Source of the DNA: Escherichia coli
Lineage (GTDB): Bacteria > Pseudomonadota > Gammaproteobacteria > Enterobacterales > Enterobacteriaceae
Strand: one strand, 5' to 3'
NCBI RefSeq assembly: GCF_001677475.2
Contig: NZ_CP015229.1
DNA: 64,000 nucleotides
Both the position numbers and the translations under genes were made by a program. The notes under the pieces were generated by a model. It was not told the origin of the DNA, ran no database searches, and worked only from the letters and a program-made list of their open reading frames with translations. Within the stretch, counting starts at the first letter, position 1, and each line of letters starts with the position of its first letter. Of this stretch, positions 1 through 60,988 are shown one piece after another.

Positions 1-1267
1 AAATTAACGTTGCGATACCAAGGTTGAAGAGTGCAACCAGCAATGCGGCGACGCTACCGTTGGTGTTAAAGAAGGCTCCCAGACCGGTTGGCATGGTCCA
101 CGGTGCAATATTGGTCACCGGAGGAATAATACCCATGTAGTACGCTGCCAGGGTGATTGCCGCCAGAATCGGTTGTACCAGTACAAACGGGATAAACATC
201 ACCGGGTTCATGATAATTGGCAGACCAAACAGAATCGGTTCGTTAATCTGGAAGATGCCGGACGGCAGCGCCAGTTTTGCCACCTGACGATAATCAGCAC
301 GGCGAGAGGCGATAAAGATAGCCAGGATCAGACCTAAAGTCGCACCACTGCCCCCAAGGAAAATAAAGGAGTCCAGCATCGGCTTGGCCCAGATATGGAA
401 GGTCTTACCGGCTGCCAGAGCCGCTTCGACGGAACCATATTGCTGATAGGTCGCGATATTTTCCAGCGCCCACGGCGTCATAATGCCGTTGTCCAGTGCG
501 GTCAGCGCCAGCGCGCCATGAATACCGAAGAACCAGAGCAGTGGAACAAAGATCACATAGGCCCAGCCCACCACGCTACCCAACGATGCCAGTGGGGTTG
601 AGATGGTATCCATAATGATCTGATGGAAGTTGGTGCCCCAGGTATTCAACGCCCAGGCAATAATCCCCATCACGGAAAGAATAATAAAGCCGGGAATTAA
701 AGCCGAGAAGGAACGCGATACTGAAGCAGGTACGCTATCGGGCAATTTAATGACCCAATTGCGGCGGACAATAAAGGTAAACATTTCTGCCACCACCAGG
801 CCAATAATAATCCCGGAGATGATATTCGCCCCACCTAACCAGTTTGCGCCAACCGCATAGGCCTCCCCGACACTATATGGGGTGACGGTCATAAATGCTG
901 CAACGGATAACAACCCAGCCGCCAGCGCATCGACTTTACGCTCTTCTGCCAGCGCCATGCCAATAAAGAACGGTGCCATTAAAGACATTATCCCTAATGT
1001 TCCGTTATATACGTTGCCGCCAATACCTTTCAGACCATTAAGTGTTTCAATGGTTGAGGCGTCGAGGCGAATACCTAAGGAATAAAAAAACGACCCCTCC
1101 CCAAAGCTTAGAAAAACGTTGTTAATTAATACAAACATGGCCCCCGCAAGGGTTAACGGCATTAAGCGAATAAAGCCATTTTTGATTGCATTAACGTGTG
1201 GCTGCTTTCCTATTTTAACTGCAAAAGGGAGGAGTACCTTTTCAAGCGATGCAATAACATTACTCAT
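1..1267 (-). CDS. chbC: PTS N,N'-diacetylchitobiose-specific EIIC component; start codon at 1265-1267, 3-prime end runs off the window start
   Basis: Minus-strand reading frame open to the window edge; reverse complement of 1251-1267 gives ATGAGTAATGTTATTGC (MSNVIA...), recognised as K-12 ChbC; sits directly downstream of chbB as in the chb operon. Confidence 0.85.
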
Positions 1268-1351
1268 AGAAAAATACCCTTAAAAACCGCAATTTAAATA
1301 TTGCGGTATTGATTTATGAAATAACTCTTTGACGGGAAAATTTAAAAAAAA
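1268..1351 (-). promoter_or_regulatory. chbB-chbC intergenic region; in K-12 this spacer carries the decoy target that pairs with ChiX sRNA
   Basis: Position between chbB stop and chbC start; function taken from established knowledge, base-pairing not verified here. Confidence 0.4.
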
Positions 1352-1672
1352 TTAATTTGCTGCGGCTTTTTTAATCGCTGCAACCGCAGCCTTAAGCACG
1401 CCTAAACCATCGACTTTGCCATAAAGCAGCGAGTCAATTACTTCGACCGGTTTGTTGGGTAACAAACGCTGGATTTCGGGCAACATATAAGCAATCTGTG
1501 GCCCTAATAACACGACATCGGCATTCTGACCTTTTTCACCAGCCAGTGTTTCCGGAAATGCTTCAATAATGACCGGAACTTCATATTTTTCTGCCTGTGC
1601 GCGCATTTTTGATACCAGTAAAGAGGTAGACATGCCCGCAGAACAAAACAGATAAATGTGTTTCTTTTCCAT
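1352..1672 (-). CDS. chbB: PTS N,N'-diacetylchitobiose-specific EIIB component
   Basis: ORF track 106 aa [23 protein letters not shown]...; recognised as ChbB. Confidence 0.95.
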
Positions 1673-3415: not shown

Positions 3416-3567
3416 ACAAAACTATGCAAATTCAATATATTGCATGAGTCGAATAGGCCTGACAGGCGTAGCACGTCAGACGGTGTAACCTTTGTCATCA
3501 ACCCGCCTCTTTTTTAATCGCTCCCCGCCTGTTACACTGGATAGATAACCAGCATTCGGAGTCAACA

Positions 3568-45391: not shown

Positions 45392-45838
45392 ATGTTTGAT
45401 GTCACTTTGCTGATCCTGCTCGGGTTAGCTGCGCTGGGCTTTATCAGTCATAACACCACTGTCGCCGTTTCAATTCTGGTGTTGATAATTGTCCGCGTCA
45501 CACCGTTAAGCACCTTTTTCCCGTGGATTGAAAAACAGGGGCTAAGTATCGGGATAATCATTCTGACGATTGGCGTTATGGCCCCCATCGCCAGCGGGAC
45601 GCTACCGCCCTCAACCCTGATTCACTCGTTTCTGAACTGGAAATCACTGGTGGCAATTGCAGTAGGCGTTATTGTCTCCTGGCTGGGTGGACGCGGCGTG
45701 ACGTTAATGGGCAGCCAGCCGCAACTGGTTGCTGGGCTGCTGGTGGGCACTGTTTTAGGCGTAGCGCTGTTTCGCGGCGTACCGGTTGGCCCGCTTATTG
45801 CCGCGGGTCTGGTTTCGCTGATTGTGGGGAAACAGTAG
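45392..45838 (+). CDS. yeaL: UPF0756 family inner membrane protein
   Basis: ORF track 148 aa, hydrophobic. Confidence 0.8.
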
Positions 45839-46616
45839 TTAATCCCGCAATATATCGGCCTGGCGTTTGCCCCAGGCCTTTCTTAAACATAGTAATAAAG
45901 GCCGTTGTTGAATCATACCCCAGCGTATGAGCAACTTTCTGTACAGTATCGCCTTTCACTAATCCCTGAAGCGCCATAATCAGCTGTAACTGCTGACGCC
46001 ACTGGCGAAAACTCAACCCCGTCTCTTTTACTATCAGTCGGGCAAGATTGCGTTCACTCATCGCAAAAAAGCCAGCCCATTGCCCCAATGACCCCCACTC
46101 GACGGGCCCTTTCGCCATCATCTCCACCATCGTGCGGATTTTAGGATGAGAAGAAACGGGCAGGTGCAGCTGTTGTTGTGGCTGCTGAGGGAGTTCATCA
46201 AACAGGACCTGAATTAATCTGCGGGTCATCGGCTCAGCACGCTGAGTCGTCGTCCTGTTTGCCAGGGTTAAAATTAATTCCCGGCATAAGGGCGATATTT
46301 TCAATGTGCAACATGTTGTCGGCATTGTCACTGCGCTGGGTTCGATAAACAGAAAACAGAGTTCAGCGTTAGATGTCACTTGATTGCTATGTTCCACCCC
46401 GCCCGGTATCCAAACCGCATATTGCGGCGGCACCATCCACAAAGCATTTTCCACCGTACAGGTAATTGCACCATGTAGCGCCAGTATCAGCTGTCCTTTG
46501 CGGTGCTGATGTACAGGACTGGTTAACTCATCCGTTCCGGCGTGAATACAAAATGCGACCGCGGCTTCATGGTGTCGGTCGGGTTCATAGCCATTGAGAT
46601 TCAACCTGTGCATCAT
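45795..46616 (-). CDS. nimR: AraC-family transcriptional regulator (NimR)
   Basis: ORF track 273 aa; C-terminal AraC helix-turn-helix; overlaps yeaL 3-prime end; K-12 yeaM. Confidence 0.8.
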
Positions 46617-59253: not shown

Positions 59254-59286
59254 CGTCAAAAAAAACGCCGGATTAACCGGCGTCTG
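59254..59286 (-). terminator. intrinsic terminator downstream of fadD (the sRNA SroD is reported from the rnd-fadD interval in K-12)
   Basis: On the minus strand acgccgg-ttaa-ccggcgt followed by 8 T; the SroD link is from memory and low-confidence. Confidence 0.8.
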
Positions 59287-59302
59287 ACGACTGACTTAAC
59301 GC

Positions 59303-60988
59303 TCAGGCTTTATTGTCCACTTTGCCGCGCGCTTCGTCACGTAATTCTCGTCGCAAAATTTTTCCGACGTTAGATTTCGGTAACTCATCACGAAACTCCA
59401 CCAGCTTCGGTACTTTGTAGCCCGTGAGCTGACGGCGGCAAAAGGTCACCAGTGACTCTTCGGTAAGCGATGGATCTTTTTTCACTACGAAGATTTTCAC
59501 CGCTTCACCACTGGAGCCGGAAGGTACGCCAACAGCCGCGACTTCCTGTACGCCAGGATGCTGCATGACGACATCTTCAATCTCGTTGGGATAGACGTTA
59601 AAACCGGAAACCAGAATCATGTCTTTTTTACGATCGACAATGCGCAGGAATCCTTCTTCATCCATCACCGCGATGTCGCCGGTGTGTAACCAGCCATTTT
59701 TGATGATTTCATCGGTAGCATCCGGACGCTGCCAGTAACCCAGCATCACCTGCGGTCCTTTGACACAAAGCTCACCCGGTTGACCCGGTGGTACTTCATT
59801 ATCATCATCATCCACAAGTTTTGCTTCCGTCGACGGCACCGGCAAACCGATGCTACCACTATGATAATCAATATCATACGGGTTAACGCTCACCAGCGGC
59901 GCACACTCGGTCAGGCCATAACCTTCCAGCAGATACTGTCCTGTCAGTTTCACCCAACGTTCTGCCACCACTTGCTGAACAGGCATCCCTCCGCCTGCGG
60001 AAAGATGCAGACTGGAGAAATCCAGCTGCTGGAACTCTTTATTGTTCAGCAACGCATTGAACAAGGTGTTTACGCCGGTGATAGCGGTAAACGGATATTT
60101 CGCTAACTCTTTTACCAACCCTGGAATATCGCGCGGGTTAGTGATAAGCAGGTTCTGCCCACCCAGTTCGATAAACAGCAGGCAGTTAATGGTCAGGGCA
60201 AAAATGTGATAGAGCGGCAGTGCCGTTACTACCAGTTCTTTACCTGGATGCAGCAACGGCCCATAGGTGGCGTTGACCTGTTCCAGGTTCGCCAGCATAT
60301 TGCGGTGAGTCAGCATCGCGCCTTTCGCCACACCTGTGGTGCCGCCGGTGTATTGCAGGAAGGCTAAATCTTCCGGCACCAGTTCGGGTTTGACGTACTG
60401 CATCCGGTAGCCGTTATGCAGTGCGCTACGAAATGAAATGGCATCTGGCAGATGGTATTTCGGCACCAGACGCTTGATGTATTTAACAACAAAATTGACT
60501 ACCGTGCCTTTTGCCGTAGATAGCTGATCGCCCATACGGGTCAGAATTACGTGCTGAACGGCGGTTTTATCAACCACTTTTTCCAGAGTGTGGGCAAAGT
60601 TAGACACGATAACAATCGCCGATGCGCCGCTATCGTTAAGCTGATGCTCAAGTTCACGCGGGGTATACAACGGGTTAACGTTTACGACAATCATCCCGGC
60701 ACGCAAAATACCAAACAGCGCCACCGGATATTGCAATAAATTAGGCATCATCAACGCAACGCGATCGCCTTTCTTCAGTCCCAACCCTTGTTGCAAATAA
60801 GCGGCAAACGCGCGACTGCGTTCTTCCAGTTTGCGGAAGGTCATCACCTCCCCCATATTCACAAACGCGGGTTGATCGGCGTAGCGCGCGACCGACTGCT
60901 CAAACATATCTACCAGAGATTGATAACGGTCAGGGTTGATCTCCGTCGGAACGTCCGCGGGATAACGGTTAAGCCAAACCTTCTTCAA
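59303..60988 (-). CDS. fadD: long-chain-fatty-acid--CoA ligase; TTG start
   Basis: ORF track 583 aa trimmed to TTG at 60986-60988 ([25 protein letters not shown]...), 561 aa. Confidence 0.9.

Follow-up and report, generated by a model that had tools for sequence, protein, structure and literature searches.

The 84-nt gap between chbB and chbC, at positions 1268-1351 of a 64,000-nt stretch of the Escherichia coli chromosome (contig NZ_CP015229.1; hereafter the window), is very probably the chbBC intergenic ChiX decoy of the E. coli chitobiose operon, an element also called a sponge or 'trap'. The decoy is already known, having been described in 2009, and the window holds a copy of it rather than a new element. 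Figueroa-Bossi et al. (2009) and Overgaard et al. (2009) are said to have reported the chbBC ChiX decoy ('trap-mRNA') in E. coli K-12 and Salmonella.

In K-12, ChiX is sponged by pairing to the chbBC intergenic region, which accelerates decay of the sRNA and de-represses chiP (PMC7815308; PMC4098024), and further support for this sponging has been published (bioRxiv 10.1101/2021.05.11.443692; PMC5145812; PMC4474525). A fall in ChiX and de-repression of chiP upon chb induction in vivo are reported for Salmonella as well as for K-12. ChiX constitutively represses chiP, and chitobiose induces chb via ChbR and relief from NagC (PMC4098024; PMC7815308; PMC8383071). A genomic-library screen for ChiX silencers recovered only clones of the chbBC intergenic region (bioRxiv 10.1101/2021.05.11.443692), and RIL-seq captured ChiX and chbBC interacting on Hfq in living cells (PMC5145812). 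The inactivation of ChiX on chb is reported to involve an altered ChiX terminator region and PNPase, with the decoy acting within the intact polycistronic mRNA (PMC4474525). The preliminary description of this DNA had attributed ChiX pairing, ChiX decay and chitoporin de-repression to the K-12 spacer, as is indeed stated in PMC7815308, PMC4098024 and PMC4474525.

Genomic context of the chbB-chbC spacer

The first 2.4 kb of the window match 5425 of 5426 complete E. coli genomes, with a top identity of 99.5%, and chbC, chbB and osmE, all three on the minus strand, are annotated under this match. The ORF upstream of the spacer contains a Pfam PTS_IIB domain (E=8e-15) and the ORF downstream a PTS_EIIC domain (E=6e-47), and the annotation of the 99.5%-identical genomes names them chbB and chbC, respectively. 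By ORFs, annotation and Pfam, the boundaries that the preliminary description had assigned to the spacer are exact (Table 1). It had also called the spacer AT-rich and preserved in position, in agreement with a GC content of 25%, compared to 44% for chbB, 50% for chbC and 51% for the window, and with an identity of 83 of 84 bases to the spacer of K-12 MG1655.

Read as mRNA, the first half of the spacer is UUUUUUUUAAAUUUU-CCCGUCAAAGAG-UU-AUUUCAU-AAAUCAAU, and after AAAUCAAU it continues as A CCGCAAU AUUUAA AUUGCGG U-UUUU-AAGGG-UAUUUUUCU-AUG. The ChiX-pairing segment thus comes before a hairpin, and the chbC Shine-Dalgarno sequence after it. The U/A-rich tract just 5' of the ChiX site is a possible Hfq contact.

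Table 1. Features of the chbB-chbC region, in window coordinates
Feature	Position	Strand	Description
chbB (PTS N,N'-diacetylchitobiose IIB), upstream cistron	1352..1672	-	106-aa ORF; stop 1354..1352
chbB-chbC intercistronic spacer	1268..1351	-	84 nt, 25% GC; from ORFs and annotation
U/A-rich tract (UUUUUUUUAAAUUUU)	1337..1351	-	just 5' of the ChiX site; from sequence
Core ChiX-pairing site, mRNA 5'-CCCGUCAAAGAG-3'	1325..1336	-	perfect complement of ChiX nt 47-58 (CUCUUUGACGGG)
Second ChiX helix, mRNA AUUUCAU	1316..1322	-	7 bp; pairs with ChiX nt 38-44 (AUGAAAU)
Hairpin, A-CCGCAAU / AUUUAA loop / AUUGCGG-U	1286..1307	-	8 bp; -10.2 kcal/mol
chbC Shine-Dalgarno sequence, AAGGG	1277..1281	-	9 nt upstream of the chbC AUG; from sequence
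chbC (PTS IIC), downstream cistron	1..1267	-	ATG 1267..1265; 3' part beyond the window start

Neither chiX (by an Rfam scan of the entire window) nor chiP lies within the 64 kb, and no Rfam family covers the chbB-chbC spacer. A low-scoring Rfam match to FnrS (RF01796) at 1282-1395 (-), with 25.6 bits against a threshold of 60 and E = 0.25, was taken as chance. Elsewhere in the window, the sroD RNA was matched above its gathering score (59259-59344, minus strand, 115 bits), and ES036/CssrF was matched just over threshold (38.9 bits) at 3418-3460 (+), in the nadE-cho intergenic region.

Complementarity between the spacer and ChiX

The ChiX sequence was taken from the K-12 MG1655 annotation (84-nt ncRNA chiX, b4585, 507204-507287), and an identical 84-nt chiX is found once each in 5422 of 5426 complete E. 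coli genomes. Its complement in the window is on the minus strand, in the sense orientation of the chb operon. The core of the predicted duplex comprises 12 contiguous Watson-Crick pairs, seven of them G/C, and its CCC (1334-1336) pairs with ChiX G56-G58, of which G57 and G58 belong to the first two pairs of the ChiX terminator stem. A 2x2 internal loop, formed by mRNA UU (1323-1324) and ChiX U45 and C46, separates the core from the second helix.

When the duplex energy was computed with the single-stranded ChiX region (nt 23-60), a value of -28.5 kcal/mol was obtained for chb-ChiX, compared to a mean of -12.7 (sd 3.0) for dinucleotide shuffles of the spacer (z = -5.3). None of 2000 spacer shuffles and none of 2000 shuffles of the sRNA segment reached -28.5 kcal/mol. 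Moreover, the core 12-mer occurs a single time in the 64-kb window, counting both strands, against 0.008 occurrences expected. The preliminary description had left the complementarity to ChiX to be verified by alignment; with 12 + 7 bp, a unique 12-mer and an energy matched by no shuffle, the duplex and shuffle tests establish that it is significant.

The site also appears accessible. Opening would cost 2.4 kcal/mol at the chb site and 8.2 kcal/mol at the ChiX seed, giving a net energy of about -18 kcal/mol, and in the folded mRNA the ChiX site is relatively exposed, with a mean unpaired probability of 0.59 versus 0.45 for the surrounding 284 nt. A duplex with full-length ChiX (-36.1 kcal/mol), which included far-flung pairs, was rejected, as it ignored ChiX's own hairpins.

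Only one other 84-nt tile in the window matches the raw ChiX energy of chb. This tile, 46086-46109 (-), lies in an AraC-family ORF (45795-46616) and reaches -29.1 kcal/mol, and therefore raw duplex energy alone is not specific. It was rejected as a ChiX site, being G.U-rich and located in a structured coding region that would take 13 kcal/mol to open, for a net energy of about -8 kcal/mol; its match to ChiX is probably due to chance.

Match to K-12 and variation within E. coli

The pairing segment is identical in the window and in K-12 MG1655. The single difference between the two spacers, at window position 1348 in the U-rich tract (U8 here, UUUAUUUU in K-12), precedes the pairing core by 12 nt and lies outside the duplex, and no functional effect is expected from it. 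Judged by this comparison, the spacer is the same element as the CHARACTERISED one. It is present in 5402 E. coli genomes, most of which carry the K-12 allele, and the window allele is found in at most 86 of the 5402. In strain 2016C-3878, the spacer begins with U7.

Among the divergent E. coli alleles sampled, changes were found in the U-tract, at one hairpin position and in the U-run after the hairpin; the hairpin change is C to U and keeps a G.U pair. The 21-nt ChiX site is unchanged in all E. coli alleles sampled.

In E. coli strain 100416 (L005, NZ_CM128593.1, locus 1501-2709), an IS1 interrupts the spacer hairpin; chbB and the ChiX-pairing site are still present, but chbC, chbA, chbR and the 5' portion of celF have been lost. 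Judging from this arrangement, strain 100416 could be incapable of chitobiose uptake and yet still produce the ChiX decoy.

Distribution of the site in other genera

A scan for CCCGTCAAAGAGNNRTTTYRT across one genome per species, for which about 17 chance matches are expected in the full collection, returned at least 120 loci; as the pattern demanded the exact site including the second helix, these loci describe the distribution of the site and not the frequency of chb spacers without it. At least 77 are chiX genes, which match on the antisense strand and were recognised by the adjoining terminator hairpin GGCCAAUA...UAUUGGCC, and at least 34 lie between ChbB and ChbC homologues identified by tblastn. 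Among the matches listed, spacers with the site come from Escherichia, Salmonella, Citrobacter, Klebsiella, Raoultella, Kluyvera, Pluralibacter, Superficieibacter and other Enterobacteriaceae. The remaining loci among the matches listed are eight isolated ones in unrelated phyla, as chance predicts, and one at a Citrobacter gene start.

These data indicate that the position of the predicted ChiX site is shared by at least eight genera of enterobacteria, and that the site stays in place even as the linker and the loop of the hairpin diverge. The second helix is present in 33 of the 34 spacers listed, with one G.U variant, a count that is not independent evidence because the pattern required this helix. 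Across the 31 distinct spacers among the matches listed, the three U that immediately precede the ChiX site show little or no variation, and the AGG of the chbC Shine-Dalgarno sequence is invariant.

Several individual genomes depart from the common arrangement. Some Klebsiella and Raoultella spacers (L044, L052, L098, L116, L126) are 136-168 nt long, compared to the usual ~80 nt. Their extra ~85 nt, bounded by AAAACUC...GAGUUU, fold into a long hairpin (-20 to -40 kcal/mol) that directly precedes the ChiX site; a small repeat element may have been inserted here, or a structured module added. Superficieibacter sp. 1612_C1 has two chbB-chbC pairs on one contig, both with the ChiX site (L050, L051), and one spacer type is shorter, with a divergent Shine-Dalgarno region (ACAGGAUG; compare L010 and L079).

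The Citrobacter gene start belongs to Citrobacter sp. FP75 (L013, 3557-3577), whose genome contains a third 12+7 ChiX complement, CCCGTCAAAGAG AA ATTTCAT, which ends at the ATG of the gene for a secreted DUF2541 protein of 134 aa. Since this complement overlaps the start codon, the DUF2541 gene is a candidate direct target of ChiX.

Comparison of the decoy with chiP and other sponges

The K-12 and Salmonella chbBC decoy has the same genes, 84-nt spacer, strand relation, 21-nt segment, hairpin and Shine-Dalgarno sequence as the element in the window. The repressed target, the 5' leader of chiP (ybfM), likewise contains a 12-nt perfect complement of the ChiX seed and shares the CGUCAAAGAG core with chb. 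In K-12, chiP pairs via ACGUCAAAGAGGA with ChiX nt 45-56, over its own Shine-Dalgarno sequence and 7 nt before the AUG, so that ChiX pairing blocks chiP translation. Unlike chb, which engages both nt 47-58 and nt 38-44, chiP has no second helix and stops short of the terminator stem. Relative to chiP, the register of chb on ChiX lies 2 nt further 3', into the terminator stem (G57-A64 with U69-C76), and this offset fits the published decay mechanism.

In a nearest-neighbour model of this overlap, an intact 8-bp terminator with 10 core pairs has an energy of -46.8 kcal/mol, and a 6-bp terminator with 12 core pairs -45.4 kcal/mol, which is 1.4 kcal/mol less stable, with G57 paired to chb in 38% of the ensemble. 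Invasion of the ChiX terminator is thus permitted, but not predicted, by the thermodynamic model.

Other sponge RNAs offer further points of comparison. ChiZ, derived from the chiP 5'-UTR, is a second RNA that sponges ChiX via the same seed (Adams et al. 2021, PMC7815308), but it is a separate fragment of ~90 nt produced by Rho-dependent termination, whereas the chb decoy reportedly acts in the intact mRNA (PMC4474525). SroC from gltIJKL, which sponges GcvB, and 3'ETS-leuZ, which sponges RyhB and RybB, are likewise located inside the transcripts of functionally related operons. Both act as processed fragments, unlike the chb decoy, and SroC triggers RNase E cleavage of GcvB, whereas the chb route is reported to depend on an altered ChiX terminator and PNPase (PMC4474525).

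A conserved hairpin between the ChiX site and chbC

Across the 31 distinct spacers among the matches listed, 99.2% of the cells in the hairpin columns are paired, compared to 28-44% in a control in which the 3' partners were slid by 1 to 3 columns. The hairpin region was unconstrained by the CCCGTCAAAGAGNNRTTTYRT scan pattern. Compensatory changes were found at three hairpin pairs (A-U/G-C in 13 sequences, C-G/U-A in four and U-A/C-G in one), and RNAalifold independently predicted the identical 8-bp helix. As judged from this covariation, the hairpin is under structural selection.

The later papers surveyed on the chb-ChiX system describe no role for the spacer hairpin. We consider it rather unlikely that the hairpin contributes to decoy function instead of being a passive structure in the spacer. 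If it does, it could serve as a barrier to 3' exonucleases or as a processing boundary, leaving a stable fragment of chbB and the intergenic region, and such a fragment could end in a stem-loop with a U-rich tail, an sRNA-like Hfq-binding module. Alternatively, the hairpin could insulate chbC translation from the ChiX duplex.

Alternative explanations

That the complementarity is coincidental, with the spacer merely an AT-rich gap carrying the chbC ribosome-binding site, has a negligible probability in our assessment. AT-rich spacers can yield low duplex energies with A/U-rich sRNA segments, and the AraC-family coding tile does equal the raw energy of chb, but a 12-nt complement with seven G/C falls exactly once, and at the spacer, where 0.008 are expected, and the observed energy is reached by none of the shuffles. 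Together with the retention of the site in at least eight genera while its surroundings diverge, these statistics exclude chance complementarity, and published genetics and RIL-seq back the pairing itself (PMC7815308; bioRxiv 10.1101/2021.05.11.443692; PMC5145812). The pairing might also be incidental to the hairpin, which together with its U-run would be an internal intrinsic terminator or attenuator uncoupling chbB from chbC. The E. coli hairpin does resemble one, with 8 bp and -10.2 kcal/mol followed by UUUU(U), and it is structurally selected. The U-run, however, is UAUUU in Citrobacter and Salmonella and CCUUAAA in Klebsiella, and since it varies between genera, a canonical terminator is not the feature under selection. 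In a terminator scan the minus-strand hairpin fell outside the criteria, the same inverted repeat being reported on the plus strand, and the Term-seq supplements of PMC7815308 contain no 3' end at chbB or chbC, although the operon was probably uninduced there. As it would also leave the invariant 21-nt ChiX complement unexplained, we regard the terminator explanation as very improbable.

The direction of regulation needs closer weighing, as the site might mainly or also let ChiX repress chbC, keeping basal permease levels and inducer uptake low when transcription is weak. Plumbridge et al. (2014) reportedly observed that ChiX down-regulates the distal chb genes at low transcription. A role of chbC as a target is also hinted at by PMC10710024, and as the same duplex would serve both roles, such repression would add to the decoy function and not replace it. 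The geometry, however, differs from that of chiP: the chb duplex stops 48 nt short of the chbC AUG, overlapping neither its Shine-Dalgarno sequence nor its start, and because of this distance and the intervening hairpin, the chb site cannot occlude the chbC ribosome-binding site. Repression of chbC by ChiX would thus need another route, such as Rho, RNase E or refolding. Furthermore, the recovery of chbBC clones only in the ChiX-silencer screen shows that the decoy direction is strong (bioRxiv 10.1101/2021.05.11.443692). On balance, we hold a target role of the site to be somewhat doubtful, and repression of chbC to be a possible second function beside that of the decoy.

Proposed mechanism and significance

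Under the decoy model, chitobiose would induce chbBCARFG, and each transcript would bear the 21-nt site in the untranslated chbB-chbC gap. By pairing with the single-stranded seed of ChiX, an abundant sRNA that depends on Hfq, this site would titrate ChiX and so draw it off the chitoporin mRNA chiP, which it represses. ChiX would then be degraded, and chitoporin synthesis would rise along with the genes for chitobiose uptake and catabolism. Because the element is nearly identical to that of K-12 and chiX is present in 5422 of 5426 genomes, we infer that ChiX decay and chiP de-repression take place in this strain as well, and the literature suggests that the chb-ChiX pairing here would also depend on Hfq.

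To our knowledge, the chb-ChiX-chiP circuit was the first bacterial case of an mRNA decoying a small RNA. The circuit is a model for sponge RNAs. It now provides the chassis for synthetic sponge circuits (bioRxiv 10.64898/2026.05.19.726096). The modest added value of the present analysis is comparative, namely the position of the 21-nt site, the difference in register between decoy and target and the structurally selected hairpin, and only the hairpin, which separates the decoy site from the chbC ribosome-binding site, might merit a short follow-up. With an intact copy of the decoy, the strain very probably keeps the standard regulatory logic for chitosugars.
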